A DNA stretch of 64,000 bases, taken from positions 32,001-96,000 of the IMG/VR virus record IMGVR_UViG_3300037313_001869; one strand, given 5' to 3'. The notes beneath the pieces were generated by a model, which saw only the letters and a list, made by a program, of their open reading frames with translations, searched no databases and had not been told where the DNA came from. Numbering within the stretch: the first letter of the stretch is position 1; the number at the start of each line of letters is the position of its first letter. Shown piece by piece: positions 15,323 through 39,181 of the stretch. Position numbers and translations under genes: made by a program. The DNA comes from a virus. Lineage: Duplodnaviria; Caudoviricetes.

Positions 15323-17458
15323 TCACTCCGGGCCGTTGCCGACCTGCCGGTGGTACTTGCGGCAGATGAGAGCGGCCAGCTCCCACTGCTTCTCGGTCCA
15401 CCCGTACACCGAGTCGGCCGCGAGCCGGTGACCGCGGATCGTGTCGCCGCCGTCGAAACCCATGTCGTTCTTGGTGCCGGCGTGGTCGGGGTCGAGGTGG
15501 GCGAGGAGGCGGAGCGACTCGACCATCCACATCTCGCGGGGGTTCTGCGGAGCACGGCGGACAGGCACGTCCGCCGACGGGGCCGACGACACCTCGGGGG
15601 TGAGGAACTCGCCCCGGGCCCGCTTCGCCTCGAAGAAGCGGCGGCGCTCTTCGGCCTCGGCCCTCGCCTTGTCGGCTGCCGCTGCCTGCTCCTCGGCCGC
15701 CCGGGCGAGCGCCTCGAAGTCGATCTCGGGCACCGACGCCGTGGGCATCACATTGGTGGCGCTGTCGACCGAGGCCGCGATGAGCGCCTGCTTCTGGGTG
15801 AGAAGCTCCGAGACCCTCTCATCGATCGGGTGATCAGCGACCAGGTTGTAGACCACGACGCCGTTGGTCTGGCCGATGCGGCAGCAGCGGTCTTCCGCCT
15901 GGCTGTTGAGGGCCGGAGTCCACTCGCGGTCGACGAAGATTTCGATGTGAGCCCTCGTGAGGGTGATCGCGACGCCCATCGCCTTGATGGTGCCGGCGAC
16001 GCCCCGGAGCCTGCCGTTCTGGAAGGCTTCCTCGATCGCCGTCCGCTCTTCGGGCTTGGTGTCGCCCGTGATGACGGCCCAGCCCTCACGGCCCTTGAAC
16101 ATGTCGACCGGCTCCCGGTGCGCCGAGAAGACCACGATGGGCTCGTCCTGCTCCTCGTAGCCCTCGACCATTTCGAGCAGGGCGCCCATCTTGCACTTGG
16201 CGAGGGCCGCCCGCATGGCGGACATTTGCTCGAAGGCCGCCATGGTCTTCGGCAGGCCCTTCGAGAGGTCGATGCCCATCTCGGCGAGAGCCTTCGCGGT
16301 CTTCTCGCAGAGCTTCCGGGTCTTGGAGTCGATCTCGACCGTGATCGTGCTCCAGCTCTTCGTCGGCAGCTCGGGCAGGACCTCCGAACGGAGCCTGCGG
16401 AGAATGACCCGGCGGAGCCTGTCGGCCACCTCGGGCTTGGGCGTGCCCCAGACCATGCCGCCCCACGAGTCCTGGTGGCCGTTGAACAGCTCGACGAACT
16501 GCCGGTAGGAGCCGAACGCCTCGCGGGCGAGGTCCCCGGCCTGGAGGATGTTCCACAGCTCTTGCGGCTTGTTCAGCATGGGCGTGGCCGTGAGCATCCA
16601 CACCCGGCCGCCGGCCTCCCTCGCTGCCTCCGACAGGGCCCGGAAGCGGATCGTGCGCTGGGTCTTCGAGCCCTTGATGACGTGGGACTCGTCCGAGAGC
16701 AGGCAGAGGCCCGCGGGGGCCGGGCCCACCTCGGTCGGGAGGATGTCGTAGTTGATGATGACCAGCTCGCCCGGCTCGGGGTGGCGGTAGCTACCGCGGC
16801 CTGAGAGGACCGTGACGCGGAAGTCGGGGCGCCACTTCTGGGCCTCGCGGGCCCAGACGCCCTTCGCGACAGCCGGAGCCACGACCACGACCGGTACGCC
16901 CTCGGGCAAGCTGGTGAGGGCCTGGATCGTCTTACCGAGACCCATCTCGTCGCTCAGCATCGCGCCCGAACGGCCGGCGAGCCAGGCGATGCCCTTCTTC
17001 TGGAAGGGGAAGAGGGCGAGGTTACGGGCCCGGAGCCTCGCGTCGACCTCGGCCGCCCTCTCGTAGGCGCTCTCGACCGACTCGCGCATCGATTCGACCG
17101 TGGCCGAGAGGGTCGCGGCGAGTGACGGGGGCATGTCCACCACGAAGCCGGCCTCGTGCAGCTTGGCCACGATCGCCGGGGTCTTGGCGAGGGGCGCGAC
17201 CTGGCACTTGCGAATGCCGTCGTATTTAGCCCCCTCGCACGCCGCCCGGTAGGCGTCGAACTGGTCGTTCAGGTAGCCCGTCGGCTTGATGACGACGTTC
17301 GCCCCCTCCTGGGTGAGCTGGATCTTGACGGCCGGGGCTTCGCCCGAGCACTTCTGGCACGTCACCTTCCAGGCGCCGTTCTCCTTGGCGAGCGAGCCCT
17401 CGCCAGCGGCGACGTTGTTTCCACAGACCTTGCAGGGGGCAGGCATACGGTTCTTCAT
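15323..17458 (-). CDS. SNF2-family helicase/ATPase
   Basis: LSDEMGLGKT, SDESH, LTATP, QAEDRCCRIGQ; own RBS (AGAGGA) and ATG at 17458. Confidence 0.9.
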   Translation of the reverse strand: MKNRMPAPCKVCGNNVAAGEGSLAKENGAWKVTCQKCSGEAPAVKIQLTQEGANVVIKPTGYLNDQFDAYRAACEGAKYDGIRKCQVAPLAKTPAIVAKLHEAGFVVDMPPSLAATLSATVESMRESVESAYERAAEVDARLRARNLALFPFQKKGIAWLAGRSGAMLSDEMGLGKTIQALTSLPEGVPVVVVAPAVAKGVWAREAQKWRPDFRVTVLSGRGSYRHPEPGELVIINYDILPTEVGPAPAGLCLLSDESHVIKGSKTQRTIRFRALSEAAREAGGRVWMLTATPMLNKPQELWNILQAGDLAREAFGSYRQFVELFNGHQDSWGGMVWGTPKPEVADRLRRVILRRLRSEVLPELPTKSWSTITVEIDSKTRKLCEKTAKALAEMGIDLSKGLPKTMAAFEQMSAMRAALAKCKMGALLEMVEGYEEQDEPIVVFSAHREPVDMFKGREGWAVITGDTKPEERTAIEEAFQNGRLRGVAGTIKAMGVAITLTRAHIEIFVDREWTPALNSQAEDRCCRIGQTNGVVVYNLVADHPIDERVSELLTQKQALIAASVDSATNVMPTASVPEIDFEALARAAEEQAAAADKARAEAEERRRFFEAKRARGEFLTPEVSSAPSADVPVRRAPQNPREMWMVESLRLLAHLDPDHAGTKNDMGFDGGDTIRGHRLAADSVYGWTEKQWELAALICRKYHRQVGNGPE

Positions 17459-17524
17459 GGTTTCCTCTGGACGATCGAGCGGACCGTCTTTTTCCAAGAA
17501 TGCGAAGCCGTCTCCGTTCTGACG

Positions 17525-17809
17525 TAACTTCGGGTCGTCCTGGTCGATCAGGTCTTCGAGGATCGCGATGACCATGCGTTCGTATCGGCCGACCTCCTCC
17601 CGATGCAGCAGCTCGATCACCGGGAGCTTGCGCTTGCGCTCCTCGATCGTGTCGCGGGCCGTGAACGAGAGGAGGGGGTTTGGGCTGTAGTCGGCCGTCG
17701 GGGTCGTGACGGCCAGGATCTCAGCCTCGCCCGACTCGACGAACATGCCGAGGGAAGAGCAGGCGTCCTTCAGGTGCCAGAACAGCTCGGATGCCTCGGC
17801 CTTGGTCAC
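17525..17809 (-). CDS. hypothetical protein (ends at TTA)
   Basis: In-frame TTA at 17527-17525, followed by a spacer and the helicase RBS/ATG. Confidence 0.65.
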
Positions 17810-18012
17810 TTGGTGACCTCGGAAGAGGGGGCGGCCCCCTTCTCCTTCTCAAGCACCTCTTTCAGGTGCCAACGGTACTCCTGCCGGACCATGGCTTGGG
17901 TCGAGCACGACTCTTCCCAGCCGCACTCACAACGGCCGGTCGACGACCGCTCCGAGAGCTTGCGCTCTGTCCCGGGGGTCAGGTCGAGTTTGTGGCCTTT
18001 CAGGCGCATCAC
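17806..18012 (-). CDS. small CxC/H protein
   Basis: Overlapping starts/stops; CECGW...WHL. Confidence 0.65.
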   Translation of the reverse strand: MMRLKGHKLDLTPGTERKLSERSSTGRCECGWEESCSTQAMVRQEYRWHLKEVLEKEKGAAPSSEVTK

Positions 18013-18200
18013 TTCATCCCCCAGCGCTTGCGCACCTCGGCCGGCGTGGCCCGGCCCGCGTGCAGGTCTTCGATGTCCTGGGGAGGGCCGCTGGCGACGA
18101 CCACGCTTCCCACCATCTCCCCGTCCCAGATCACCTCGACGATCAGCCGGGCCTTGTGCTCGCTCAGGCGGTCGACTTTCGTGTTTGTCGTGACGTTCAT
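18009..18200 (-). CDS. hypothetical protein
   Basis: Packed in operon. Confidence 0.65.
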   Translation of the reverse strand: MNVTTNTKVDRLSEHKARLIVEVIWDGEMVGSVVVASGPPQDIEDLHAGRATPAEVRKRWGMK

Positions 18201-18211
18201 GACGTAGCCTT

Positions 18212-18697
18212 TCAGTTGGTGAAGACGAAGCCGAGATCGGCCAGGTCGTCGAAATCGACGGGTTCGCTCGCCTTCAGGAGAGCGAGGTCTTCCTGGGCCT
18301 CTTTCACCGTGGCGTAGAACTTCGAGTAGCTCACGTCGTCGTTGCCGCAGAGGTAGAGGCAGACAGGCGTAGCCGAGGTGACAGCGTGGATGCCCGTGGG
18401 GGCCGAATGCCGGGCCTTGCGCTTCTTGCCGGGGGTATCCCGGTAGATGCTGCGCCGGGCCCGATCGGCGCTCTTGCGGTAGTAGTCGTCGTTCCGCCGG
18501 GGCAGGTCGGTACCCGTGTAGTCCGTCAGCTTGAAGAAGGCGTAGTCCCCCGGGAAGGGCCCGCCCCAGCTCGCAGCGCCCTCGCCGAAGCGGAGCATTC
18601 CGGTCTCGATGACGCCCTTTCCGTAGGTGAGACCGAGCCTCGTCAGGTAGTCCCGGTACTCATCGCCGTGGGCTTGGAGGTATTCGAGGATCGTCAT
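18212..18697 (-). CDS. hypothetical protein
   Basis: Packed in operon, codon bias. Confidence 0.75.
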   Translation of the reverse strand: MTILEYLQAHGDEYRDYLTRLGLTYGKGVIETGMLRFGEGAASWGGPFPGDYAFFKLTDYTGTDLPRRNDDYYRKSADRARRSIYRDTPGKKRKARHSAPTGIHAVTSATPVCLYLCGNDDVSYSKFYATVKEAQEDLALLKASEPVDFDDLADLGFVFTN

Positions 18698-18700
18698 GGG

Positions 18701-19012
18701 TCAGCCCATCCCGAAGCAAAGGACGCCCTTGGCCCACTCGGGGGCCTCATCGAGCGCCGTGATCGTGTAGTTTCCGTCCGGGTCTTCCTCGGCCTTGAAC
18801 CACCACGCCTCGGCCTCGGGCAGGATGCCGGCCATGATGCCGGGCGGCACCTTCTCGATGACCGCGTGGGTGTAGGTGTTCGACTCGAAGAAGAGGTCGG
18901 CGCCCTCGCCGCTGATGGCCGCAACGGCCTCTTCTTTCGTGGGGTACCAGCCCCAGCAGCGCGTATCGGCAGCCGTGTTGAGGGCCGTGACCGTGTAGAT
19001 GGCTGAGATCAT
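18701..19012 (-). CDS. hypothetical phage protein
   Basis: ATGA overlap; TRCWGWY..E.A motif. Confidence 0.75.
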   Translation of the reverse strand: MISAIYTVTALNTAADTRCWGWYPTKEEAVAAISGEGADLFFESNTYTHAVIEKVPPGIMAGILPEAEAWWFKAEEDPDGNYTITALDEAPEWAKGVLCFGMG

Positions 19013-19314
19013 GGTTTCTGTTGTTCCCGCTCTTCTTCGAGGATGGCTTCGTGCTCGGCAGCCCGGCGTTCCACGTCCGCAACCTCTTCGGGCGACTTGG
19101 GCCAGGCGATCATGGGGTGTCCGGCCGCCTCGTTGGCGGCCCAGTACCGGCGGATCTCGTAGGCGTCGACCAGCGCCCGGCTGTACGTGTAGGCGTTCCA
19201 GGGGCAGTAGCGGCACGAGAGACCGTCGAGACCCCTCGCTCGCAGGTGATGACGTACGCCCTTCTTCTTGCAATCGGGGCATACGTCGTAGGGCCGGTGA
19301 TGGTAGGCGGTCAC
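19009..19314 (-). CDS. zinc-ribbon protein
   Basis: CPDC...CRYC; GTGA overlap. Confidence 0.7.
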   Translation of the reverse strand: MTAYHHRPYDVCPDCKKKGVRHHLRARGLDGLSCRYCPWNAYTYSRALVDAYEIRRYWAANEAAGHPMIAWPKSPEEVADVERRAAEHEAILEEEREQQKP

Positions 19315-19526
19315 GCCCGCTCCTTGCGCCACTTGCGGAAGTCCTTCAGCCGGTCGAGGTTCAGGATCGTCTCTTTGCGGGCTAGGAAGAAGTCCCGGCC
19401 CCGGGCGAAGAGGTAGGGCAGAGCCGCCTCGGTTTGCGCGATCATCGCGTCCAGCTCCTCGTCGGTGAGCCCGTCGCCCCTTCCGAACTTCTCCCATGCT
19501 TCGTTCATCTGCGTTTCGGTCAGCAT
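19311..19526 (-). CDS. hypothetical protein
   Basis: GAGGAG RBS. Confidence 0.7.
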   Translation of the reverse strand: MLTETQMNEAWEKFGRGDGLTDEELDAMIAQTEAALPYLFARGRDFFLARKETILNLDRLKDFRKWRKERA

Positions 19527-19555
19527 TTCGTTTCTCCTCTCGCAGCCTAGACGTT

Positions 19556-19903
19556 TCAGGTCTTCTCTTTTTTCCCGCGACGGTGCCGAGGAACGTACGG
19601 GCCCCCAGGCAAGAGCTTGGCGAGCACCTCCGGGGCAAGCTCAACGCTGCCCGGGCGCCGTTCGAGGTTGAGCTTTCCCTCGGCCGCCGTGCAGCGCAGG
19701 CAGTCGACCGGATCGGCCAGCCCTTCGGCCGAAACGAGCGACTTGACGCCGCAGAGGGTCCGGGTCTCGCCCAGCACGAGCGAGCGGTTGCGGGTCGGGA
19801 CGACGGCCAGGTGGATGACCTCACCCCCGACCGTCGAGACCTTGGCGAGGTAGCCCTTGGCTTCGGTGTTTTCGCGATCGAGGGGTTTAGGAGAGGGGGT
19901 CAT
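19556..19903 (-). CDS. hypothetical protein (H..C..CxxC)
   Basis: CGGTGTC motif 12 nt upstream. Confidence 0.7.
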   Translation of the reverse strand: MTPSPKPLDRENTEAKGYLAKVSTVGGEVIHLAVVPTRNRSLVLGETRTLCGVKSLVSAEGLADPVDCLRCTAAEGKLNLERRPGSVELAPEVLAKLLPGGPYVPRHRRGKKEKT

Positions 19904-19926
19904 GGCCCCCTCTCAGACACCGCGCC

Positions 19927-20775
19927 TCACCAGTGCAGGTGGATGTTGCCGTTCGAGAAGGTGTCGCCGATCCCGAGGAGCTTGACGACATCGGCAAGAT
20001 TCTGCGCCTTGAAGACTTCGAGCGTGCCGTAGTAGTTCGGCGAGTTGCGGATCTTCTTGGAGAGCTTGTAGGCCGCCTCACGCTGGGCCGGCGTGAGCTT
20101 GCCGCCCTCGACCTGCGCGGCCAGCTTCTTCAGGTCCTCGGCGAAGCCCTCGGCCATGGCCTTGTACTTGGCTTCCCTGGCGTCCTTCTTGGCCTGCTTG
20201 GCGTCCCGCTTGGCCTTCGCCTCGGCCGCCTTCGCGTCCCTCTTCGCCTGAGCCTCGGCCTTGGTCTGGGCGATGACCTCTTCGGTCACCTCGCGCAGAG
20301 GGCGAAGCTCCCACTTGGCCACGAGACCGTCGAGGCGCTCGACCTCGCGCCGCTGGCTCTTGGCGCTCCACTCGACCTGACGAATGGCCGATTCGAGTTC
20401 CCTGGCGTACTCCCAGTTCTCGTTGCCGGCCGCGTCGAACCGAGGCAGCTCGACATCGATCATCTCGGGGTCGCGAGCCCACACCTTCTCGCCCGGGGCC
20501 CGGCGCTTGACCGTGAGCGTCGCAGGACGGGCCTGGAGCTTGGCGAGCACCTCTTCCGTGTGCTTGAGAACCTGGACCATCATGGCCCGGTACTCATTCG
20601 TCGCCGTGAGCGACCGCTCGTAGGGTTCGTAGCCCACGGCGTAGCAGTCGCCCTCGATGGAGCCGTGGCCCGGGCGACGGTAGCCGTGGTGGACGAGCCG
20701 GCCGTCCTGGATCTTGTGATCCTGCTCGCACACGCCGCACATCCCGAGGGTCCCGATCCGAAGTTTGGTTGCCAT
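19927..20775 (-). CDS. hypothetical phage protein with N-terminal CxxC/HHGY and coiled coil
   Basis: CGVC...LVHHGY...GDC. Confidence 0.8.
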   Translation of the reverse strand: MATKLRIGTLGMCGVCEQDHKIQDGRLVHHGYRRPGHGSIEGDCYAVGYEPYERSLTATNEYRAMMVQVLKHTEEVLAKLQARPATLTVKRRAPGEKVWARDPEMIDVELPRFDAAGNENWEYARELESAIRQVEWSAKSQRREVERLDGLVAKWELRPLREVTEEVIAQTKAEAQAKRDAKAAEAKAKRDAKQAKKDAREAKYKAMAEGFAEDLKKLAAQVEGGKLTPAQREAAYKLSKKIRNSPNYYGTLEVFKAQNLADVVKLLGIGDTFSNGNIHLHW

Positions 20776-20817
20776 GGGCGCTAGACGATCGAGAGCGGGC
20801 GGATTTTCCGAAAAAGC

Positions 20818-21063
20818 TCAGAGGGCTTCGGGGCGGTCGAACCGGGCCGGCACGGGCTCGAACTGGTAGACCTCGTGAAAGCCGAACCTCAACCACTTCT
20901 CCCGGCCGGGCTCCCGCACATGGAACGTCTCGGCCTCGGGGTCGACCCGGGCGACGAAGAGCCGCCGATCCGGCGAGTCCCTCCAACGCAGCTCGTTGTC
21001 GAGGACAAGCCAGGTCGGCGGCTTCCAGTCAGGGAAGGCTTCGCGTAGGGGCCTACGCGACAT
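20818..21063 (-). CDS. small protein with RFDR tag
   Basis: Ends PVPARFDRPEAL. Confidence 0.75.
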   Translation of the reverse strand: MSRRPLREAFPDWKPPTWLVLDNELRWRDSPDRRLFVARVDPEAETFHVREPGREKWLRFGFHEVYQFEPVPARFDRPEAL

Positions 21064-21065
21064 CG

Positions 21066-21284
21066 CTAGTTCATCCGGCGCCGGGCGGCGGCGGCGGTCT
21101 CTTTGATATGTGCCTCGAACTGATCGAGCAGCTCGGTCGAGGGCTTCTGGCCATCGAGCCGGAGCACGATTCCGTTCGGGACCAAGAAGACCTCGACCCG
21201 GTAGGGGGCGACGCCCCAGACCTTGGCGGCTTGCTTGCGACAGGCTTCTTGCTTCGCGATCAGGATTTCCTGGGTGTTCGACAT
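21066..21284 (-). CDS. hypothetical protein
   Basis: GGAGGT RBS before ATG 21284. Confidence 0.7.
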   Translation of the reverse strand: MSNTQEILIAKQEACRKQAAKVWGVAPYRVEVFLVPNGIVLRLDGQKPSTELLDQFEAHIKETAAAARRRMN

Positions 21285-21333
21285 GGTTACCTCCAAGGAC
21301 GGTTGAGAGGCCGTCGATTTTCCGGCAAGATAA

Positions 21334-22890: not shown

Positions 22891-22897
22891 GCCGATC

Positions 22898-23362
22898 TAA
22901 GACACCGCCTTCGTCGTCGTCCTCTTCACCCTCGGCGCTGGCTTCGCCCTCTTCGCCCTCACTTCCGCTGTTCTCGCCGGCCATGTTGAGATCGTCGAGG
23001 TCTTGCAGAAGTTCGAGAACGTGTCCGACGCCCTGCTCGTCTCGCCACATGCCCACCCACCCGACGAGGGGCACGTCGCCGCAGTCGCACTCACACATGA
23101 CGTTCTCGTCGAGGGCGAACTCGGTCTCGGCCCGGACGAAGAGAAAGGTACGGACGAGGTTGCCGTGCTTGCCGTCCTGGCAAGGCAGCATGGCCCAGAG
23201 AACGATTTTGCCCGGCTTCGACTTGTCGTCGATGTTGAAGATTTGAGCCCCGAAGGGCAGCTCCATGATCACGCGCTGGGTATCGAGGCCGACTTCGATC
23301 CCCTTGATGATGTAGCGGGGAGGGGCGAACGGGAGGTGCTCGATCGAGTGGTTGTCGCTCAC
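22898..23362 (-). CDS. hypothetical phage protein with acidic tail (ends at TTA)
   Basis: Acidic tail, then in-frame TTA at 22900-22898, 7 nt before next start. Confidence 0.7.
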
Positions 23363-24415: not shown

Positions 24416-25572
24416 TGCCCCCGCTTGGGTCCTGGGTTTATGAAGGGGTGTATGCCATCTCCCCCGAGGGCGCCGTTCGGTGCATCGTCAACGTCCGAGA
24501 CGACCGGTTCACCTCGGCGCCTCCGCTGACGTTCAGCTACGACCGTCGAACGCACCCGATGCTGGAGGCGGCCCGCTGGACGCCGCTCACCGCTTTCGAG
24601 GCCGAGGTCATTCGGGGCCTGTCATTTGGGCGGCATGTTCACTACAGCAACATGCCCCAAGGGGTGGGAGCCACCTTCGATCCGGTCGCTCGGATCGAGG
24701 GGGAGCTTCCGCCCTGGTACGTCGTCGGTGGCCGGTGCAGGGTGCGCGGCGACAGCCTGATGACCTACACCCTCTTCGATGCCGGTCGATCCCAGATGGC
24801 CTTTCGAGAGAACGCTGGGCCCGGGCGACTCTTTCAGTGCTCGGCGCCGGGGGCCATCCGGCTGTTCGAGGCGGTACCTGGCCCCTGGGAACGTCCCGCT
24901 ACCGAGCCCCTCTACGCGATCTCTTGGCAGAGGACTCCGCCCCCGCCCGACCCTCCGCCTGCAAACGAGCTTCTCCGGGTTGCCGACGAGGTCACCCATG
25001 TGACGAGGAAGATCCGCGTGGCGTTTGGGGTCGGGGACGACGAGAAAGAGGGGGTCACGTTGGAAGCCGAAACCGTAGCCCCGCATCCGAACTCGCCCTT
25101 TTTCAAGGGGGCGATTGTGCTAAACGACAAGGGCTACGCCTACAAGGTCGAAAACGTCGAGGTCGAGAATGGCACGCCTTCGGCCATTCTCATGTGGGAC
25201 CTCGACCGGTCTTCACTGCCCCATGCCCGGCCCTACTCGCGTCGCTACCCAATCCCTGTCCCGCTCACCTGGGCTGCGGACATGCCCGTTCCCGCGGGGC
25301 TGACCGAGGAAGACTGCTCGCTCTTCGACGAGTTGAAGACGGGGCAGGTTCTCGTGGACCTCGACTCGCGGCGTATTCTCGTGGTCGTCGGATTCCTGGT
25401 GACGGGTGACGAGAACCGGAAGACGCATTTTCTGATCGAGGAGGCAACGAAGGGCCCCGGAGAATCCAATCCCTTTCAGGTGGCCTCTGAGCCGGTTCGT
25501 TCCCGGTGGGTCGCACTTGGGCCCCATCGCAAGCCCCCGTCTCGGTTCGACCGCCTTGGGGAAGACCTCTGA
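24415..25572 (+). CDS. multi-module KOW/SH3-like protein with RFDR tag
   Basis: LPPWYVVGG, FFKGAIV, LKTGQVL modules; ends PSRFDRLGEDL. Confidence 0.8.
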   Translation: MPPLGSWVYEGVYAISPEGAVRCIVNVRDDRFTSAPPLTFSYDRRTHPMLEAARWTPLTAFEAEVIRGLSFGRHVHYSNMPQGVGATFDPVARIEGELPPWYVVGGRCRVRGDSLMTYTLFDAGRSQMAFRENAGPGRLFQCSAPGAIRLFEAVPGPWERPATEPLYAISWQRTPPPPDPPPANELLRVADEVTHVTRKIRVAFGVGDDEKEGVTLEAETVAPHPNSPFFKGAIVLNDKGYAYKVENVEVENGTPSAILMWDLDRSSLPHARPYSRRYPIPVPLTWAADMPVPAGLTEEDCSLFDELKTGQVLVDLDSRRILVVVGFLVTGDENRKTHFLIEEATKGPGESNPFQVASEPVRSRWVALGPHRKPPSRFDRLGEDL

Positions 25573-25955
25573 TGGAGACCCCGCTCCGTATCGGTTCGCT
25601 TCTCAAGCACAAGCAGTCCGGCGATGCCTACCTTGTGAAGGCCATCTCTGGCGTGGGTAGCTACCAGGTCGAGCGGCAAGACCCGATGCGGACGCGCTAC
25701 TGGTACCAAGTATCCCAGATCCCCGAATACTTCGAGATCATCCCCGACCCGCCTCCGTGGCTCAAGACCGGGGCGAAGATCATCGACCAGAGCAACAACC
25801 TCTTCGTGGTGAACGCGGTTCTCGGGCGACGGGTCGTTCTGCGAAGGTCTGCCGGGCGAGACGGACTTGGGGAGCTTGTCGAGACTACGCTCGACGATGT
25901 GGTGAAGGACTGCCGGCCCGTCGACTTCCGCCCTACCCGTTTCGATCGCATCTAG
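25572..25955 (+). CDS. two-module KOW/SH3-like protein with RFDR tag
   Basis: LRIGSLL, PPWLKTGAKI; ends PTRFDRI. Confidence 0.8.
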   Translation: METPLRIGSLLKHKQSGDAYLVKAISGVGSYQVERQDPMRTRYWYQVSQIPEYFEIIPDPPPWLKTGAKIIDQSNNLFVVNAVLGRRVVLRRSAGRDGLGELVETTLDDVVKDCRPVDFRPTRFDRI

Positions 25956-25981
25956 CCGCTTTTGGTGTAGAGAGCTGGGCT

Positions 25982-27166
25982 ATGACACAACCGGCTACCA
26001 AGCAAAAAGCTCTCACCCCTGCTCCTCCCTGGTGGAATCACTCGCTTCTGCCGAGGCAGAACGTGATGAAGACCGGTCCCCTCGCCATGCTCCTTGGCTT
26101 CGCCGTCGCCCGCGGCGAGACGGTCTACACGGGCTCGTGCCGCGGGGTGCTCGAAGACAGTGATGAGGAGGGGCAGAAGGCGTTTCAGGACGACCTCTGC
26201 AAGATCGCAAAGGACTCCTCGGTCGTGCTCGTGGGCGGCCCGCTCTTCGGCCGTGGGGCCTACGAGACGTGGATCACCTGGGAGCGGGGCGCCATCACCC
26301 TCGAACTCGGGATGGACGGCAAGGTCAACCTGAACCTCGCGACGCTCGACGAGGACATCTACATGAAGCTCGCCGAGACCATCGGAGAGCACATGCTCCC
26401 CGAGGCGACGCGGCAGCCGGTCTACACGCTCGCGCAGGTCAACGGCGAGATGACCGTGGCCGAGCTGGGGCTCGCGGGGGCTCCGCTCGAAGCGGGTAAC
26501 TACGCCCCCGAAATCGTCGAAGACTTCAATTTCATCGTGCAGGACCTCGGCGAGAGCGTGCCGACCGGGCGCCTCGTGATCCTCGACGGCCCGCCGGGGA
26601 CGGGCAAGACCTACCTCATCCGGGGCCTCATCAACGAGGTGCTCGACGCGGTCTTCGTCGTCGTCCCGCCGCACTTCCTCCACCAGCTCACCGACCCCTC
26701 GTTCGTGCCGATGCTCCTCAAAGCCCGGGCGAACGCCGGCTCGGACAAGCCCATCGTGCTCATCCTCGAAGACGCCGATGACGCCATCCGGCTTCGCAAG
26801 GACCGCGGCAAGAACAACCAGATCGCGGCGCTCCTGAACCTCTCCGACGGCCTCATCGGCCAGGCGCTCGATCTCCGCATCGTGGCCTCGACCAACCGCA
26901 GCGTCGCCGAGATCGACCCTGCCCTTCGCCGCCCGGGGCGGCTTCTGCGGCACATGATCGTGGGCCCTCTCTCGCCCGAGCAGGCGAGCGAGGTCTACGA
27001 GCGGATCTCCGAGGGCGAAGAGGTCGAGTTCGAGGGCCCGACCACCCTCGCTCAGGTCTACGCCCACTTCAAGGGCCTCCAGCTTCTCGACGACCAGGAG
27101 GACGAAGACGAGGAGGACCTCGACGAAGATGAGGACGACGAAGATGAGGACGACGAGGACGACTTA
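25982..27166 (+). CDS. AAA+ ATPase with acidic tail (ends at TTA)
   Basis: GPPGTGKT, ILEDAD, LLNLSDG, STN, IDPALRRPGR; poly-D/E tail then TTA at 27164. Confidence 0.85.
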
Positions 27167-27169
27167 GCC

Positions 27170-27562
27170 ATGGCGTCGTACACGGTCGCGCAGGTCTACA
27201 CGCACGAGGTAGCCGCCTGGGTCACCCTCCTTACGGCCCAGGCCGTCCCGGGGCTGCTCGAAGGGCTTCTCAAGAAGGACTACGAAGTTGCCTCCCTCTC
27301 CGAGACCCTGACCCTTCGGAGTGAGGTGAGCGCGGTCGTGGGCTTGTGGATCAAGCGTAAGGAGTCGACTGCCACGCTCGACCCCTACAAGGTCCGGGAC
27401 GATATCCAGCAAGTCTTGAATGAGGCCCGCTCGACCTTCTTCTCGATCGTCGTGGCGCACATTGGAGGGGCCGGCTGGACCGGGTCGAACCTCATCCTGC
27501 TCAAAGAGGCCCCACCCCCTCCTCCGGACGAAGACGAAGAGCCCCCGCCCCAGCTTCACTGA
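27170..27562 (+). CDS. hypothetical protein
   Basis: ATG 3 nt after TTA, preceded by GAGGA. Confidence 0.7.
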   Translation: MASYTVAQVYTHEVAAWVTLLTAQAVPGLLEGLLKKDYEVASLSETLTLRSEVSAVVGLWIKRKESTATLDPYKVRDDIQQVLNEARSTFFSIVVAHIGGAGWTGSNLILLKEAPPPPPDEDEEPPPQLH

Positions 27563-29413: not shown

Positions 29414-29426
29414 CTCCGGTGTAGAA

Positions 29427-29892: not shown

Positions 29893-30240
29893 ATGTTCGA
29901 CGAAGAACCCGAAGTGCGGACGTTCCTTCCGAGCGCCGAGGTCAAGGCCGAGGTCCTGCGCCAGCTCGCCGAGTTCGAGGCGCTCTACCGGACCCCGAAT
30001 CCTTGGATGAAAGAGGGCCAGCCGGTCCGGCACAAGCTCTATGAGCGTTACGGCGTCATCGCGGCCGTGGGCAACCTCGGATGCCGGATCGACAAGCTCG
30101 TCTACCGGGGAGAGAGGGGGCTTTTCGATCCGCCCTTTGCTCTCTCCGTCTCGCTCGCCGAGGTAGCTATCTGCTGGGAGCCCTACGACCCTTCGGAGCT
30201 GGGCTCGCGGTTCGACAAAGCCTGCCGCGACGGCCTCTTA
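29893..30240 (+). CDS. PW-module protein with RFDK tag (ends at TTA)
   Basis: GAGGAG RBS; PNPWMKEGQ; ends GSRFDKACRDGL then TTA, coinciding with convergent TAA. Confidence 0.7.
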
Positions 30241-31101: not shown

Positions 31102-31542
31102 ATGGAAGTCATGCCTGACTCGAACTCTCCCCCAGCGCCCCCGACGGTACCCCTGGACGAGCCCATCGAAGCATCGTGGGCCACGGCCAAGCAGAGCAAG
31201 GTTCCGCACCTCGACCGTGAGGCGCTGAAGAAGTTCGTGCTCGACTTTCTCGACGGGCGCATCTTCGTGAGCGCGGAAGTCCGGGAGATGTCGCTCTTGC
31301 CGAACATCTTCATGCCCATTGCCTTCGGTGCCCTCGCGGGCTTTACCGAGGAGGACACGAAGGAGGTGGGACTGATCTGGGAGTACCTCGACCGGGCCGG
31401 ACCCCGGGCCATCAACGGCTACCCGATCTTCTCGTCGTGCCGCATCATGCACCGGGACGACTGGGAGAAAGCACACGCAGCCATCAGCAAGGAGATCGAC
31501 CGGCGCAAGGCCGCCGAGGCATCGATCCTGGAGGACCTTTTA
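31102..31542 (+). CDS. hypothetical protein (ends at TTA)
   Basis: AGPRAINGYPIF; in-frame TTA at 31540 overlaps next ATG (TTATG). Confidence 0.75.
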
Positions 31543-32309
31543 TGCTCGTACAAGCCATGACTCCGCGGCTCGTCTGGAACATGCAGGCGTTCCCGCGCAA
31601 CGTCGTCATCCTCACCGAATCCATGCCCGGCGTCTCACGGGGCCGGGTAATGGTCGGCTATACGACCGACTTTCAAGCGGGCCTCGCCGAGACGGCGGCC
31701 ATCGAGCCTCTGCGAGACATTTCGATCCGGGGCTCGGATGCGGTCGTCCACGAGTACGTGGTGCCCTTTCACCTGATCACCGACCTCCGAGGTCGCCTCG
31801 GTTCGACCGACGGCTTCCGGGTCACGGTCGAGTCGGCGCACCGGGGCGAACGAGCTACGTCGGGCTGGCTCGAACGGCGGGTCTCGTTCCTCCACCGCTT
31901 CCCCATCGAGGGTGGGGGCATCGTGCGAATGCGGATCGGGGACATGGAGATGGACTTCGCCAACCCCCACTTCGACCCCAAGGCGGAGCCGCCCGAAATC
32001 GGTCCCGAGGACGAGGTCGCCAGGGTCGAGGGCCAGCGCATGAGCACCCGCAACCTTTCCATCGCCATCGACCGGGTCCACGGGGGCCGGAGCCCGGCAA
32101 CCGTGGCGGCGGCGCAAGCTCGAAGGGAAGCCCGGATCGCCTCGTTTCAACAGAGCTTCCGGGAGGTACCCAGGGACCTCCCGGCCGACGCGGCGAGCAG
32201 GGCCGCCAACTACGAGGCCCAGGAAGCCGCGCTCGCCAACATCCAGACCCCGTCCTTGCCCCCGATCCGGCAGAACCGTTTTGACCGGATCGGGTGGGAC
32301 GACGAGTTA
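31542..32309 (+). CDS. hypothetical protein with RFDR tag (ends at TTA)
   Basis: GGAGG RBS; ends QNRFDRIGWDDE then TTA at 32307, coinciding with convergent TAA. Confidence 0.7.
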
Positions 32310-32870: not shown

Positions 32871-32904
32871 GGAGCTACTTGTCCTTGAGTTACAAGCGAA
32901 AAGG

Positions 32905-33453
32905 TCAGACGCGCTCGAAACGGGTGGGTGCGTCTGACGTGGTGGGCTCGCTTGGGGCCCCGCTGCGGAGGGTCTCCGGAGGGAGAACCTCGAAGAAGTC
33001 AAAGACCGATGGGTCGAGCGCGAGAACGCGGCTCTCCGAGAGGACCGGGTAGACCGGGGGCACGACGCTCTCGACCGTAAAGAGGCGAGCCTCTCGGTTG
33101 ATATGAACGACGCGCATCCGGCAGCCGGTGTGGTCCTGCAACACGTCCCCCACGTACACCGGCACGTCTCCGGGGACGTGGGCAGGGTAGGGGTCCGGTT
33201 CGGTAGGTCCCCACATTGCAAGGAACACCTCCCAAGGGTACTCGACCGTCTCGGGCATTCCGTCCTCGTCCATCACCACCAGCTCGATCCGGGTGATCGG
33301 CGTAGCCCCGAGATGGGCTACTTCGTGGATCTGGACGATGCGCGCGTACCGTTCTTCGCCAGGGACCCGGGACCTCACGAGCACGTTGGGGTTCGCCCAA
33401 AGGCTCGGGTCCGGGTCGGTCGAAGGTTCCGGAGGGTCGGAGGGATCGGGCAT
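32905..33453 (-). CDS. two-module SH3-like protein with RFER tag
   Basis: Ends APTRFERV. Confidence 0.75.
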   Translation of the reverse strand: MPDPSDPPEPSTDPDPSLWANPNVLVRSRVPGEERYARIVQIHEVAHLGATPITRIELVVMDEDGMPETVEYPWEVFLAMWGPTEPDPYPAHVPGDVPVYVGDVLQDHTGCRMRVVHINREARLFTVESVVPPVYPVLSESRVLALDPSVFDFFEVLPPETLRSGAPSEPTTSDAPTRFERV

Positions 33454-33512
33454 CGCGCACCCAGATCCCCGGCTTTGGAAGTTTAGCGACGCCCGGGCGG
33501 TGTTATAGCGGG

Positions 33513-33878
33513 GTGATGCTCGGACTTTACATCGGTCTCGGGATCACGTCGGCGCTGTTGATCCTCGTGATCTTCAAGCTCATCGACCTTGAAAGCAAGC
33601 TGTTCGGAGTAAGCGAGCGGCAGAGGATCGATTACGAGTACGCAAAAACCCTGTTCTCCGATCACGCCGATCGCCTCCATCGGGCCGAGTCCCGGATCGG
33701 AAGGCACGACCAGCAGTTCGAGACCGTCGACCGGTCCCTCGACAACGACGCAGTGCGTCTTGCCGACCTCGAACAGGCCACGAAAAAACGCCGGAAGGGG
33801 CCCCCTCATCTCACACTTGTCTCGACAAATGACGACGAGTCCGACAAGCCCGGCACCACACGGTTTGACAAGTTTTGA
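33513..33878 (+). CDS. membrane-anchored coiled-coil protein with RFDK tag
   Basis: N-terminal hydrophobic helix; ends TTRFDKF. Confidence 0.75.
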   Translation: MMLGLYIGLGITSALLILVIFKLIDLESKLFGVSERQRIDYEYAKTLFSDHADRLHRAESRIGRHDQQFETVDRSLDNDAVRLADLEQATKKRRKGPPHLTLVSTNDDESDKPGTTRFDKF

Positions 33879-33976
33879 GCGCTTAGGTAGGCTTTGCGGT
33901 TAGGTCGGCGGCCTAGGCACCTGGGGGCACCTCGCTCTCTCGCCCGGCAGCTTGTGCCTAGGAAGGTCTCTAGCCC

Positions 33977-34204
33977 ATGCCCGTCGCGCACAAGTATGCT
34001 GCCCCGTCCGCCGCCTACGTTGCCCTGAAGAGCGTCGACCCGGATGAGATGCTCATGTGGATCTTCGAGGTGAGCAAGGGGCAGAGCTTCCCGCTCCCCG
34101 TCGAGATCGGGGGGGAGGTCCACGTCTTCGACTCGCTGGCCTCGATGGTCGGCTTCGCGCGTGGTCTTCGATGTGCCCAGGAGACGCACGGCGTCTCTCC
34201 CTGA
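33977..34204 (+). CDS. hypothetical protein
   Basis: GGAAGG RBS. Confidence 0.6.
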   Translation: MPVAHKYAAPSAAYVALKSVDPDEMLMWIFEVSKGQSFPLPVEIGGEVHVFDSLASMVGFARGLRCAQETHGVSP

Positions 34205-34223
34205 GCCGGTGTAGGGGCTTCGC

Positions 34224-34592
34224 ATGAGCGAGCCTAACTACCGCGACCTTCTCGTCAATATGAGCCCGCAGGGGGCCGATACTCTGAGGGGTATCGCAGA
34301 GCTTCACGTCAAAGCGGCGCGCATCGCGGGCTACGTGGCCTTCACGACGGAAGAGGCACGTACTCTCCGCGGGCGACTCCGGGATCTCCGTGGGGACGAT
34401 CTCCACTACGTCCTGATGCGCCTCCCCTCGCACCTCAACCAGGGGCTCCGGGAGTTCTTCGAGGCCGAGGAGCAGTTCCGCAAGGGCGAGATCCTCGATT
34501 GGGTGCCTCGGGGGCTCAGGCCGTCGCACGAGCCGGACTTGCTCTTCATCCGGCTCGCCACGGTCCCTTCCCCTGCATCGTCGGATTCCTGA
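34224..34592 (+). CDS. hypothetical protein
   Basis: CGGTGTA 10 nt upstream. Confidence 0.7.
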   Translation: MSEPNYRDLLVNMSPQGADTLRGIAELHVKAARIAGYVAFTTEEARTLRGRLRDLRGDDLHYVLMRLPSHLNQGLREFFEAEEQFRKGEILDWVPRGLRPSHEPDLLFIRLATVPSPASSDS

Positions 34593-34598
34593 CTTCGC

Positions 34599-35072
34599 TA
34601 AGGATTCGTCGACAGTGCAGAGCTTTCGCCCGGTAGCCCTGAGGCCCTTTTGCTGGGGCATGTTTGCCTCATGGGGCGCTTTGGCACTGGACAGGTTACC
34701 AGCCCTCTCGGAGTCCTTCTCCGGCATGACCTGGGCAAGCACCGGCACCGGTCCCGATTCGGCGGGTCGACCGATGAGGGGCATCGTCTCCTCGCCCATC
34801 TTCGCTCGCGTCGCCTTCTCGGCGAGCATCATCGCCAGGTTGCCGATGATCACCGTCTTGGTGAAGAACTCGTGCGGCTTCGTCACCGGGTCGGTCTCCT
34901 TCAGGCTTGCAACCTTGGCTTCGAGCTGCTTCACGAGCTTCTCGGTGGGGAGGTTCACCCAGTTGGCCGGATCGTCGTAGCCCTCCATTTGGAGCTTCGC
35001 CTCCATGACCACCGCGAAAGCGGCCACTTCGGGACACACGGCCATACCCAGCGTCTTCGATTTGTTCTGCAT
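34599..35072 (-). CDS. hypothetical phage protein (ends at TTA)
   Basis: FAVVMEAKL...IGNLAMML; in-frame TTA 6 nt from the convergent gene's stop. Confidence 0.7.
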
Positions 35073-35250
35073 ATTCCCTCTTCGGTCAGGTGGGAAGGAG
35101 CGTGCCGCCCGACCGAACCGGCCGGGCGTTATGCACGTTTGGGGCCATTGGTAGCATTGCCCGTCCTGTTACGATCCGTATCGTATTTTTACGGCACAGA
35201 TCGCCCCTCCCCCAAGCTTTCGAGAAACTACTGAAGAGTGGTTCAGGGGT

Positions 35251-35637
35251 ATGACGAAGCGCCCTTGCAAGGTCTGCCGGAGCGAGATCGACGACAGCCC
35301 TTTCACTGATGAGATGATCACCCTGTTCGAGCAGGCCGAGGCGTGTGACGACCCCGAGCGCCGAACCGAGATGGTCTTCGAGCTGGCGCGGCTCTTTGTC
35401 GATGCGGCGTCGGAGTCCGATACGGTGGTCCCCGATGACCTCCACGAGACCATTCAGGCTGCCCTTCAAGCCCATATGAAGTGGCGTGCCAGCATGATGC
35501 GCGTGGGCCGTGTCGTTATTCGGTCCTTGCAGGATATGAAGGAGAATCCGGAGATGTGGGACCATCTGCGGGGCCACTCCAAAACGCCTACGCCTTCGGT
35601 AGGGCCGAGCAAAAAGGGCAAGGGTCCGACCAACTAG
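35251..35637 (+). CDS. hypothetical protein
   Basis: CKVC N-terminus; CTAG convergent overlap. Confidence 0.7.
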   Translation: MTKRPCKVCRSEIDDSPFTDEMITLFEQAEACDDPERRTEMVFELARLFVDAASESDTVVPDDLHETIQAALQAHMKWRASMMRVGRVVIRSLQDMKENPEMWDHLRGHSKTPTPSVGPSKKGKGPTN

Positions 35638-36194
35638 AGGGTATCCCTTTCGAGAACCCGGCTCATCCGGGTCCAGGTACCGTGGGCGTGCCGCAGTGCG
35701 GCAATCAGCCTAACACACTCCTCGGCCGTGAACGAGCCCAAACTCCACCGCGCCTGAGGAATGGCTTCCTGGGAACACCAGTCGAGAAACCACCGCCTCG
35801 ACTCGGATACGGCCTCGTCGTCGAATGGGTCGCGGTCCTCGGGTGGGGCAAACGCCACACGAGGAACAAGTAGCTTGTAGGCTTCTTTTCGGAGCGCTCG
35901 GGTCCTGGCGTCGACCGGAGTGCCTACCGGCGAGCCATCGTCAAGAGCGGCTACGCTGCCCCGGCACGAAGTCTCCTCCCACCGAGAACAACCGTAAAAA
36001 AGGCCGTGTTTTCCGGACTTGAGGGTCAACATAGACCCGCAGTCGGGGCACGGGAGGTCGGTTCGCCGACCCGGAAGCATGGAACTCAGGGACCGAACGA
36101 GCTGGAGGAGCCGGGGGAACTTGTGTGCCAGGTCCGGGTCCAGATCGAGTCCGATGTCCTCTGCCATGAGGGGTCTATACCCCGGGACCTTCAA
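35634..36194 (-). CDS. topoisomerase-type C4 zinc-ribbon protein
   Basis: CPDCGSML...GLFYGCSRW...CRG. Confidence 0.75.
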   Translation of the reverse strand: MKVPGYRPLMAEDIGLDLDPDLAHKFPRLLQLVRSLSSMLPGRRTDLPCPDCGSMLTLKSGKHGLFYGCSRWEETSCRGSVAALDDGSPVGTPVDARTRALRKEAYKLLVPRVAFAPPEDRDPFDDEAVSESRRWFLDWCSQEAIPQARWSLGSFTAEECVRLIAALRHAHGTWTRMSRVLERDTL

Positions 36195-36826
36195 TCATCG
36201 TTGAGGATTTTGCTCCACCGATCCGATTCCGAACGCAACGAACTTGAGGTTTCTTCTCCTTTCTTACGATGCCAGGTCAGGAAGGGGTCGCTTGAAGGGT
36301 GATAGCTCATCGAAAGCCCCGTATGAGCGTGGTTGTCGTAGTGAAGTTCGACCCACCCCCCATTCCGGATTGACCCCAGGTAGTTGAACACCTCTCCGGG
36401 CCCTGCGAGCGGAGCCATCCCCCGGTTGGCCACGATCTCTGCCCCCGGTTCGACCTGGATGCGAAGCTCCAGGTACCGGTCCCCTTCTCCGTACCAGCGA
36501 GGCGAGAGACGGACGAAGCGGTCAGAGCAGTAGAAGACTTCGCCTACGCCTCCGGCTAGGCAGACGGTGCGGACTTCCAGCTCACTGCCGACTCGACAGT
36601 GTCTCGCCGGCAAGCTCGTGTGGAGGGACGCCCTGCCTTCTCCGTCGGGCGTGAAGGGGAGCGCCTTACGGCCGCGTTTGCCGACTTGGTAGAGAACCCC
36701 GTCGGCCCCTCCCTCATTCTCCTGAAAGGACAGATGGCGCGTCCGGATCTTCAGGATGGGCTCGATATCGTCGAGCGTGGGTGCGATTGTGATGAGGCTC
36801 TCATCGAGAGCCAGGTGGATGCTCAT
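36191..36826 (-). CDS. hypothetical protein
   Basis: Packed ORF; ends SDRWSKILNDD. Confidence 0.65.
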   Translation of the reverse strand: MSIHLALDESLITIAPTLDDIEPILKIRTRHLSFQENEGGADGVLYQVGKRGRKALPFTPDGEGRASLHTSLPARHCRVGSELEVRTVCLAGGVGEVFYCSDRFVRLSPRWYGEGDRYLELRIQVEPGAEIVANRGMAPLAGPGEVFNYLGSIRNGGWVELHYDNHAHTGLSMSYHPSSDPFLTWHRKKGEETSSSLRSESDRWSKILNDD

Positions 36827-36890
36827 ACAGAAGTCGTCGTACAGACAGACCAAACATCCCGGCCTGGCACTCCGCACAAGCCACCCCAGA

Positions 36891-37778
36891 TCAAGCGTCC
36901 TGGAGGAGACGTACGAGTGGCGGACAGCGTCGCTTGATCCGTTTCTCCTCGGTCTTTGTCCGATGCCAGCCAACCACTAGCCCGATCGGGCTCCCGAGCG
37001 CGGCCCACTTCGAGGCGGCCGAGAGCAGTACGTAGAGGTCGTCCATGCCTCTGCGGGCCTCAATGTCTTCGAGCCCGTCGAGCACGACGACGAGCGACCC
37101 GATCAGCCGGTTGTGTCTCGCGAGGGCGAGCAGAAAGAGCAGGGCCTCGATCCGGTCTCCGTCGTCGAGGCGGTCGAGGGGGCCCGAGAGAATCGCGTCG
37201 TGCGCTTGCGCTTCCTCCCCTTGCAGCCACCGAACCAAGGTCTCGAAGGTGCTTCGCGCGGCTTGTTGCTCCCGCTCACCCATGGCCACGGCGTAACGAA
37301 GGTCCCCGAGCAAGGCCATGGCTTGTGCGTAGACCGAGTGTCGTCGATCCGCGAGGTCGAAGAGCTGCTCGGGTCGGGCAAGGTGGTTCACAACCCCGAG
37401 GCCCCAGAGGAGCTGCCAGCCCTCAATCCCAGGGGGCAGCCCTGCCACGTAGGACTCGGGCTCGCGGCACTCGATCGGAACCGGGCATCGCCGAAAGGCC
37501 GCTGTCAGAAAGTCAGCGCTGCGCCCTCTCCAAGAAGGGTCAGCCGAGAAGAAGGCCACAGTCCCAGGGCTGAAGATGGCTTCTTCCCGGGCGACCCTTT
37601 GGTAGAGTGCGTCTCGATCTCGCTGCTGACCGGTAACGAGCAGAAACGGCCGAGACCCTTCGCCGATCCTTCGCGACCACGCCACCGTCTCGTGCAAGAC
37701 GGCCGTTTCGATGATCGAAGGAAAGGGCCGAGCGCCCCGCAGGTCTTCCCAGTAGTCCTCCACGTCGAGCTTCGGCAT
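36891..37778 (-). CDS. hypothetical protein (possible degenerate P-loop fold)
   Basis: LVVVLDGLE is Walker-B-like; no clear Walker A. Confidence 0.65.
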   Translation of the reverse strand: MPKLDVEDYWEDLRGARPFPSIIETAVLHETVAWSRRIGEGSRPFLLVTGQQRDRDALYQRVAREEAIFSPGTVAFFSADPSWRGRSADFLTAAFRRCPVPIECREPESYVAGLPPGIEGWQLLWGLGVVNHLARPEQLFDLADRRHSVYAQAMALLGDLRYAVAMGEREQQAARSTFETLVRWLQGEEAQAHDAILSGPLDRLDDGDRIEALLFLLALARHNRLIGSLVVVLDGLEDIEARRGMDDLYVLLSAASKWAALGSPIGLVVGWHRTKTEEKRIKRRCPPLVRLLQDA

Positions 37779-38368
37779 AACGGGCCAAGCGTCTCATCGA
37801 GAAAGAAGCGCATCGGCTTTCGGAGTTGCGGCGAGTAGAAGTCGACCGCAATCCGGCCGTCTACCTCCCGGACCACTCGGTAGTTGTCGAGCTTACCATC
37901 GCGTCGATGGCTTTCGAGGGCGAGAAGCCCGTGGTAGCCCAGCATCACACCGGAGAGGTTTGCGAGCGACCGGTCGAGAAGGGTTCGGGGCAGGGCTCGC
38001 ACGAGCGCTTGGATCTCCGCCGGGGTCATCCCATCAGCGCTCGCCATGAGGCAGCCGAAGAGTCCGCGGGCCTCGGACGCTTGCGCCTTCTTCCACTGAA
38101 CAAAGAAGGTCGAGGCCCCGGCCGAGATCATGGCGGCGAGCATCTCGCTCGTCACAGGCTGCCCGTCGTATTGCTGGAACTTGGCCTTCAGCTCCTCGAC
38201 CGTGGCGTGGTGGGCCTTGTCGTAGAGAACGAAGTCGTCGTGCTCCGGGGGCAACACCGCCGAAGGTGGAGGAGCGGGCCGGTTTCGGAGGTCTTCCCAG
38301 AACTCCTCGGTGCCAAAGCCCGGGTCTTCCTTCGACGCCCGCTCGATCGCGTCGAGCGTGGGTTTCAC
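37778..38368 (-). CDS. hypothetical protein (ends at TTA)
   Basis: GTGA start overlap; in-frame TTA overlaps next ATG (TTATG). Confidence 0.7.
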
Positions 38369-38820
38369 GCGAGCCTCGGCCCCAGCCACGGGGGCAAAAA
38401 GAGGTCGGTCTTGTCGAAGCCGCTCGCGATCCAGAGTGAAGGCTCGTTCGGGACCTGCCAGGGCCGGGGAATACCCTTGAATCGATCGAAGCCCCCCTCG
38501 ATGAACCGGAACTGCGCGTCTCGCTTCTCGCCCTCCCACCCGAGGGCCTCGGCGCTCGCGAGCAGGGCTCGGGATCGTTCGAGCGTCCAGTCTCGCATGA
38601 GCGGGGCCACGAAAAAGAAGATGGGCCCCTGGTAGCGAAGCGCAAACGAGAGACCGAGCACGAGCGTGGCGTCGGTCTTGTCCTCGTCACGCGCCCGACA
38701 AGAGAAGCCTCGCTTCTCCCCTTCGGCCTCAAAGAGGACTCGTTCGGCCTCGGTTAGGGCCTTTGAGGAGAGAAGCTGGTGGGCGTAGTAAAGCGCCTTC
38801 TGGTGTGGGCTCGGGGTCAT
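38365..38820 (-). CDS. hypothetical protein
   Basis: CGGTGTA motif 15 nt upstream of ATG 38820. Confidence 0.7.
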   Translation of the reverse strand: MTPSPHQKALYYAHQLLSSKALTEAERVLFEAEGEKRGFSCRARDEDKTDATLVLGLSFALRYQGPIFFFVAPLMRDWTLERSRALLASAEALGWEGEKRDAQFRFIEGGFDRFKGIPRPWQVPNEPSLWIASGFDKTDLFLPPWLGPRLA

Positions 38821-38865
38821 GGCGGCAGGCTTCTCTACACCGAACCGGTGTAGGACCCCCACGGG

Positions 38866-39117
38866 TAACGACGGCCGGGGCCAGGGGCTCACGGTCATGT
38901 TGACCACGGGCAGGTGCCTCGTAGCGTCCCATTCGGCGTGGGCGGAGACGAGAGCTTGCTGGGCATAGGGGGTGGCGTCGAGCATCGCCAGAAACACCCT
39001 CCAGCCCTGGAGGTCGTCTCCCGTCGGGTAGCGATCGTAGGCCAGAACGTGCTGCGCCAGGTCCCCAACCATATCGCTTCGGTGGACCTGGACGCTGAGC
39101 CATCGGACGAAAGACAT
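38866..39117 (-). CDS. YozE-like (SAM-like) protein (ends at TTA)
   Basis: SFVRWL..Q..R.D.VGDLA...D..YP; GGAGG RBS; in-frame TTA at 38868-38866. Confidence 0.65.
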
Positions 39118-39181
39118 GTGCGGCACCTCCACCCCAAGCCGGCCGCATAGCTGCACTATAGAGGGCAGGGGGCGGGTACCG

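Follow-up and report, generated by a model that had tools for sequence, protein, structure and literature searches.

UUA as a predicted fourth stop codon in a jumbo phage and a clade of Polyangiaceae

Results

Three apparent fusion genes are divided at TTA

We examined a window of 64,000 nucleotides (nt), positions 32,001 to 96,000 of the IMG/VR virus record IMGVR_UViG_3300037313_001869 (G000:32001-96000), in which three open reading frames (ORFs) that look like gene fusions under the bacterial code (table 11) each contain one in-frame TTA. The source record is a complete jumbo phage genome with 435,218 bases, terminal repeats and a GC content of 64.8%. A sequence-only reading had placed the ORFs at 15323-17809, 25757-27562 and 38365-39156, and these coordinates proved accurate, as did its account of the single in-frame TTA, the spacers and the downstream ATGs.

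The first ORF, on the minus strand, begins with a 94-residue gene of unknown function (17525-17809) that ends at TTA (17527-17525). The following 66-nt spacer (17459-17524, minus strand) scores as non-coding, with a codon score of -0.13 versus 0.35 and 0.33 for the genes on either side, and carries a GAGG ribosome-binding site at its end. Beyond it lies a SNF2-family helicase of 711 residues (15323-17458, minus strand; SNF2/Helicase_C in Pfam) with its own ATG at 17458, whose orthologue in the related phage G001 has an in-frame TGA five codons upstream of its Met. At the second junction, on the plus strand, an AAA ATPase (25982-27166, start approximate; Pfam) runs into an acidic tail and then TTA (27164-27166), and a 130-residue gene (27170-27562) opens at an ATG 3 nt past it. 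The ATPase, its tail and the ATG 3 nt past the TTA had been recognized correctly from the sequence; translation probably begins at 25982 or further downstream and not at 25757, where the ORF opens. In G001 the orthologue carries this acidic tail as well, and TGA follows it. For the 130-residue gene we found a weak match (E 0.006) elsewhere in a second relative, G002, some 10 kb from that phage's AAA gene. Homologue searches with the 94- and 130-residue halves returned no real homologue, and a viral scan with the AAA protein returned no match.

The third ORF, again on the minus strand, consists of a gene of about 83 residues with no Pfam family (38866-39117, likely start 39117) that ends at TTA (38868-38866), a 45-nt spacer (38821-38865), and a 151-residue gene with its own ATG at 38820 (38365-38820). 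The upstream gene had been labeled 'YozE-like', for which we could find no Pfam match at E≤1. Its orthologues end with TGA at the same place in G001 and G002, and in G002 both halves are adjacent and in the same order, divided by a TGA and a spacer in which GGTGTA recurs. In the window, the motif (CGGTGTA, 38842-38836) forms one arm of a 7-bp inverted repeat in the region 38836-38853. Across the phage genome, 107 of 605 genes have GGTGTA no more than 80 nt upstream, and 27 have it there in the opposite orientation; it is probably a phage promoter or regulatory element.

If the three junctions were switchable fusions, in-frame cases might be expected in excess. The count of three in-frame, open junctions among the eight tandem TTA junctions of the window was exact, as was the view that this is what chance predicts: genome-wide, 8 of 52 tandem junctions (15%) are in frame for TTA and 57 of 355 (16%) for TGA; the figures for TAG and TAA are 20 of 73 and 17 of 44. 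There is no excess of potential fusions at TTA in this phage. Relatives in which TTA encodes leucine have stand-alone versions at all three junctions, and although we looked for full-length fusion homologues with Leu at the junction, no relative is fused. The in-frame junctions are neither enriched relative to TGA nor conserved, and no fused homologue supports programmed read-through. From these comparisons of sequence, we are highly confident that the three ORFs are pairs of ordinary separate genes, fused only in appearance under table 11.

TTA marks gene ends across the phage genome

When TTA is counted as a stop, G000 has 634 genes, of which 404 end in TGA, 91 in TAG, 71 in TTA and 68 in TAA, and coding density rises from 86.8 to 90.1%. 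Genes ending in TTA include those for RecA, HU and ClpX as well as structural-module genes. We scored coding potential after each of the 64 codons in strongly coding contexts of G000. After TTA the mean score was -0.30 (n=25) and only 12% of cases continued as coding, close to TGA (-0.33), TAG (-0.33) and TAA (-0.20), while common sense codons continued in 75-89%; TCA and TTG stayed sense. TTA was found at 0 of 3,110 Leu-conserved codons, and orthologues in relatives stop at or near the TTA of G000. For one structural-module gene, all relatives (39 of 39) have a standard stop at offset 0; read with table 11, the gene would be 74 residues longer.

Convergent genes give the same picture. All 16 of the 16 convergent pairs with TAA on one strand and TTA on the other use one common triplet, the same three base pairs serving both genes, and such triplets occur in 16 of 41 convergent pairs versus 2.4% expected. 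Their counterparts in G002 are four-base TAG/TAG overlaps. The tag encoded by the phage transfer-messenger RNA (tmRNA) reads ALAA and then TTA; this RNA (L011:13912-14439, minus strand) is 528 nt long, far longer than the 374-position model. Among 44 tRNA calls in G000, the only Leu anticodons are CAA, GAG and CAG. The positions of TTA are not those that chance would give: they are gene ends. We consider it almost certain from this pattern that UUA is a dedicated fourth stop codon in G000.

A tRNA with a CUA anticodon (L014:15929-16021, minus strand) adjoins a Pth2-like gene (L014:16390-16683, minus strand), though TAG is a normal stop in G000; CUA tRNAs were found in G002 and G003 as well.

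The code is patchy among related phages

We asked how TTA is used in related phages. Five carry the TTA-stop signature: G000, G003, L246, L247 and L392. In G003 (322 kb, 58.6% GC), 36 orthologue ends fall at TTA, only 2 internal TTA codons occur in 50,933 codons versus 840 CTA, and the broad tRNA set lacks a UAA anticodon. L246, L247 and L392 have no internal TTA and 3, 8 and 6 terminal ones, respectively. By contrast, L240, L248, L393, L395, L396, G001 and G002 have TTA inside genes and essentially never at their ends; in G001 (53% GC), TTA aligns to Leu 94 times, and both G001 and G002 carry tRNA-Leu(UAA). In a tree built on eight proteins common to the phages, with 1,942 columns and all 13 rows kept, the TTA-stop phages do not form one clade (approximately unbiased test, p=0.0003), and the TTA ends of G000 and G003 are mostly on different genes.

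G002 has only 8 TTA in 67,367 codons, yet keeps its tRNA-Leu(UAA). G006 (L099/L418-L421) and L394 have internal TTA at 0 of 11,171 and 0 of 3,877 aligned codons and none at gene ends either, and possibly represent an intermediate from which the codon has disappeared. LR745208.1 (L397, L408-L413; 485 kb), the only close relative in INPHARED, contains 11 TTA inside genes and 3 close to their ends, and probably reads the codon mostly as Leu.

As a phage gene might impose the code, we searched for one. Neither G000 nor G003 gave a match to RF-1 or PCRF, and G000 contained no GGQ motif in a release-factor context, no tRNA-Leu(UAA), and no terminator-like or degenerate tRNA with a UAA anticodon. Sixteen genes are common to G000 and G003 but absent from G001 and G002, and several of these have no family; among the scanned genes common to G000 and G003 alone, there was no match to a release-factor family. 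Together with the patchy distribution of the code, the lack of a recognizable release-factor gene suggests that the cause probably lies in the host.

A Polyangiaceae clade with the same predicted code

To look for such a host, we screened 301 genomes of the order for tags of the tmRNA type that are closed by TTA, and found one in G593. Release factor 2 (RF2) of G593 has five close relatives among 120 family genomes, at 73-77% identity versus at most 64% for all others. Cluster look-ups name all six genomes Polyangiaceae, and in a comparison of ribosomal proteins the five with an L14 locus fall into one clade (support 96). Among 76 orthologue ends in the clade, we counted 66 TGA, 9 TTA, 1 TAG and no TAA; the TTA ends come from four of the six genomes, among them those of S11 (in two genomes), L14, L5 and L36. 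Across 16,398 aligned codons we saw no genuine internal TTA, the two apparent ones being the S11 stops. Family outgroups had no TTA ends and 26 internal TTA in 29,088 codons. The tRNA-Leu(UAA) pattern was found in 0 of 6 clade genomes versus 104 of 115 other family genomes, in assemblies that are incomplete; a CAA tRNA was present in the five clade genomes tested. G593 also has a false fusion like that at the second junction of the phage: a gene, TTA, 3 nt, and the ATG of an ABC ATPase. Judged from sequence, then, these six genomes form a Polyangiaceae clade with terminal-only TTA, no detected tRNA-Leu(UAA) and an altered RF2.

In the outgroups, TAA and TAG make up 19 and 28 of 144 ends, in contrast to the clade (L530-L554), which looks as if TTA had replaced TAA. 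The bodies of the clade's CAA tRNA-Leu genes (L521-L525, L528) resemble those of UAA tRNA-Leu genes of the family, and the CAA tRNAs of other myxobacteria look similar too; a UAA-to-CAA anticodon change in the clade is possible.

Other searches for the code gave less. The end of S11 followed by TTA was found in 0 of 401 Myxococcota genomes, a sample that included neither G593 nor G684. In 20 Myxococcota genomes picked by a strict tRNA pattern, which gave false negatives, TTA was sense where data were obtained. A search for the end of L36 followed by TTA across metagenomes yielded at least 119 matches, mostly chance, with a few that were AT-rich and organelle-like: L36 followed directly by TTA occurs in AT-rich contigs of 36-38% GC (L253, L295, L304, L322, L328), which are probably organelles with a UUA stop. 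The same arrangement occurs in L313, a contig of 44% GC.

The clade carries an altered RF2

Helix 5 and the SPF loop of RF2 touch the first two bases of the stop codon. All six clade genomes have Gly at the position just before the helix-5 Trp, where all 24 outgroups and all 74 other RF2s have Asp. At the tip of helix 5 the clade has Gln in place of Thr, and in five genomes the SPF motif has Tyr for Phe. RF1 of G593 resembles that of an outgroup. By analogy with organelles, RF2 itself may read UUA.

A further change, Ser to Ala after a conserved Thr, proved too widespread to be a marker of the code. RF2s with Ala or Gly at this position (L120-L199) are common in mostly high-GC lineages, among them Myxococcota, Acidimicrobiia, Thermoleophilia, Thermomicrobiales and Planctomycetota. 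This Ser is therefore not invariant in bacteria.

Other TTA gene ends in the window

Several triplets in the window are shared by convergent genes. That at 2100-2102 reads TAA on the plus strand and TTA on the minus strand, that at 8136-8138 is a common TAA/TTA stop, and those at 30238-30240, 32307-32309, 54521-54523 and 57879-57881 are common TTA/TAA stops; for the last, the G003 orthologue has TGA at offset 0. PyrB (309 residues; 50362-51291, minus strand) ends at a TTA that is the TAA of the convergent gene; its Pfam domain is complete at residue 304, and the G001 orthologue has TAG at -2. A dNMP kinase of 250 residues (51823-52575, minus strand) has its TTA 7 nt before the next ATG, with orthologue TGAs at +4 and +5, and a Dam-type methyltransferase of 286 residues (59555-60415, plus strand) ends at a TTA that doubles as a convergent TAA, with orthologue stops at -2 and -5. 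The remaining TTA-ended genes lie at 22898-23362 (minus strand; next gene 7 nt on), 31102-31542 (plus strand; orthologue TGA and TAA at offset 0), 34599-35072 (minus strand; convergent, with a 6-nt gap), 37778-38389 (minus strand; one-base overlap with the next ATG) and 40802-41164 (minus strand; upstream of a C1 peptidase).

Many unrelated small proteins of the window share a short RFDR-like motif at their C-terminus (for example, 674-1015, 1752-2102, 4881-5570, 8620-9045 and 24448-25572).

Discussion

Our data fit a model in which UUA is a stop in the phage and the code comes from a host that lacks tRNA-Leu(UAA) and has an altered RF2, a chain that we hold, as a whole, with reasonably good confidence. 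Because the code is shared, the clade or a relative of it may host the phage. In this model, the host would have lost tRNA-Leu(UAA) and the codon-reading head of its RF2 would have changed to accept U at the second position, so that RF2 would end translation at UUA as it does at UAA and UGA. The order of events may have been that UUA was lost under GC pressure, the tRNA was lost, RF2 broadened, and TTA was then gained at gene ends. Phages moving to such a host would have cleared TTA from inside their genes, shed the tRNA-Leu(UAA) of their own, and acquired TTA gene ends later. It is likely, in our view, that a Polyangiaceae lineage has a natural four-stop code in which an altered RF2 reads UUA, and that jumbo phages converged on this code several times as they moved to these hosts.

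A number of observations weigh against this model. None of the host markers that we tried (PyrB, ClpX, GroEL, tmRNA DNA, the tRNA region and an AlkB-like gene) was discriminating: the GroEL comparison did not tell hosts apart, and the tRNA region and the AlkB-like gene match Polyangiaceae broadly, not the clade. The clade has no TAA ends, while the phage has 68. It counts as a single evolutionary event, its genomes were assembled from metagenomes, and its nine TTA ends include none in the short stretches of G698 and G704. The organelle-type Ser-to-Ala change of RF2 is present in the clade but also in bacteria in which TTA encodes Leu, so that it is not sufficient for a UUA stop. On the phage side, a whole-genome view covers two TTA-stop phages, G000 and G003, the latter 68% complete.

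Could the phage itself impose the code on a standard-code host, through an unrecognized release factor, an RF2 adaptor or a nuclease against the host tRNA-Leu(UAA)? The patchy distribution would fit a moving gene too, some of the 16 genes common to G000 and G003 have no family, in many high-GC bacteria TTA is very rare and RF2 may be permissive, and the proposed host link is drawn from the shared code. However, neither a release-factor match or motif nor a tRNA-like RNA with a UAA anticodon turned up, a bacterial clade with the same code is a simpler source, and small genes outside the core module end in TTA too and would have needed the factor first; we therefore think a phage factor unlikely. 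Another possibility is that UUA is unassigned, a hungry codon at which ribosomes without a tRNA stall until the chain is freed by rescue or drop-off (ArfA/ArfB-type factors, Pth) and not by RF2. No tRNA for UUA was found in phage or clade, the phage has both a tmRNA and a Pth2-like gene, and there is a precedent in the unassigned CGG of Mycoplasma capricolum (as cited in PMC8629427). Yet a stall would be expensive at the tmRNA tag and at abundant proteins, and TTA closes both (among the latter, ribosomal proteins S11, L14, L5 and L36 of the clade, and HU, RecA and products of structural-module genes of the phage). Some stops also overlap the next start by their last A, and the RF2 changes coincide with the clade; together, these points make a hungry codon quite unlikely.

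The sequence-only reading had raised conditional decoding of the kind known from bldA, with UUA read as Leu under some condition to give switchable fusions at the three junctions. The junctions are indeed in frame and free of stops, as are eight genome-wide, but their rate equals that of TGA, and the spacers, non-coding by their scores, contain a ribosome-binding site or the upstream motif. Moreover, no homologue is fused, read-through would extend 16 genes antisense by 24 to more than 200 codons and remove the tmRNA degron, TTA is missing from Leu positions inside genes, and no tRNA-Leu(UAA) was found in phage or candidate host clade. With TTA ending genes genome-wide, the proposal finds no support, and we judge it very unlikely. 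An artefact, either an error of sequencing or assembly or a +1 frameshift at TTA into TAA or TAG, is still harder to credit. TTA is one base away from both TAA and TGA, and A or G follows it in 32 of 71 cases; in the other 39, the next base is C or T, so a +1 slip into TAA or TAG cannot be general, and the profile of the next base resembles that of TAA. An identical read-through PyrB appears in two other, independent Logan runs, and four other phages, as well as bacteria out of unrelated samples, show this pattern too.

Codes in which UUA is a stop are known from the mitochondria of Labyrinthulea/Thraustochytrium (NCBI table 23) and, together with UCA, from peDinoflagellate plastids (PMC12574857). 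The likeness is close: in these organelles as here, UUA stands only at homologue-defined 3' ends, there is no cognate tRNA, the standard code produces false 'fused genes', and the codon-reading region of RF2 is altered, with Ala at a position that we take to be Ser204 in T. thermophilus numbering. Unlike the organelles, our case involves a phage and free-living bacteria with full translation systems and 56-73% GC, and only UUA changes. The clade-specific RF2 changes also differ, with Asp to Gly and Thr to Gln in helix 5 and change beside the SPF motif, whereas Ser to Ala is common to standard-code bacteria. In Streptomyces, bldA is the tRNA-Leu(UAA), and its targets carry TTA inside their coding sequence. 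That system is similar in its high-GC setting and in having UUA as a special codon; here, however, the tRNA was not found and TTA is terminal only.

Phages and bacteria with stop-to-sense recoding are known (tables 4, 15 and 25). Such phages likewise belong to families of mixed code in which tRNA content tracks the code, but the change in our phage runs the opposite way, from sense to stop; the phage still uses all three standard stops, and no phage release factor was found. The KACI preprint (bioRxiv 10.64898/2026.04.02.715157), which lists stop-to-sense codes, reports a possible, untested CGA stop in two archaeal assemblies. As with the CGG of M. capricolum, the likeness is a sense codon absent from coding sequence without a cognate tRNA in a prokaryote; unlike those absences, TTA here is positively placed at orthologous gene ends. 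According to the same preprint, neither KACI nor Codetta can infer stop codons, so screens with them would have missed a code change of this kind in bacteria. The plastid case has been called the first sense-to-stop change outside mitochondria (PMC12574857, 2025), and our literature search, in which subscription journals were thinly covered, found reports of a UUA stop for mitochondria and plastids only and none for bacteria or phages.

At the level of annotation, about one in nine genes of G000 carries a false tail or fusion, and in the public collection PyrB has 332 residues instead of 309 and ClpX 484 instead of 446. The code may serve as a marker for predicting phage-host pairs, and it may naturally hinder the exchange of genes. 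If an RF2 in nature reads U at the second position, stop-codon specificity would become testable with a few substitutions made in a laboratory strain, and with it the codon-capture route in which GC pressure removes UUA, the tRNA is lost and RF2 takes over. If our model is true, a sense codon would have been reassigned to stop outside organelles, in the genome of the cell itself.

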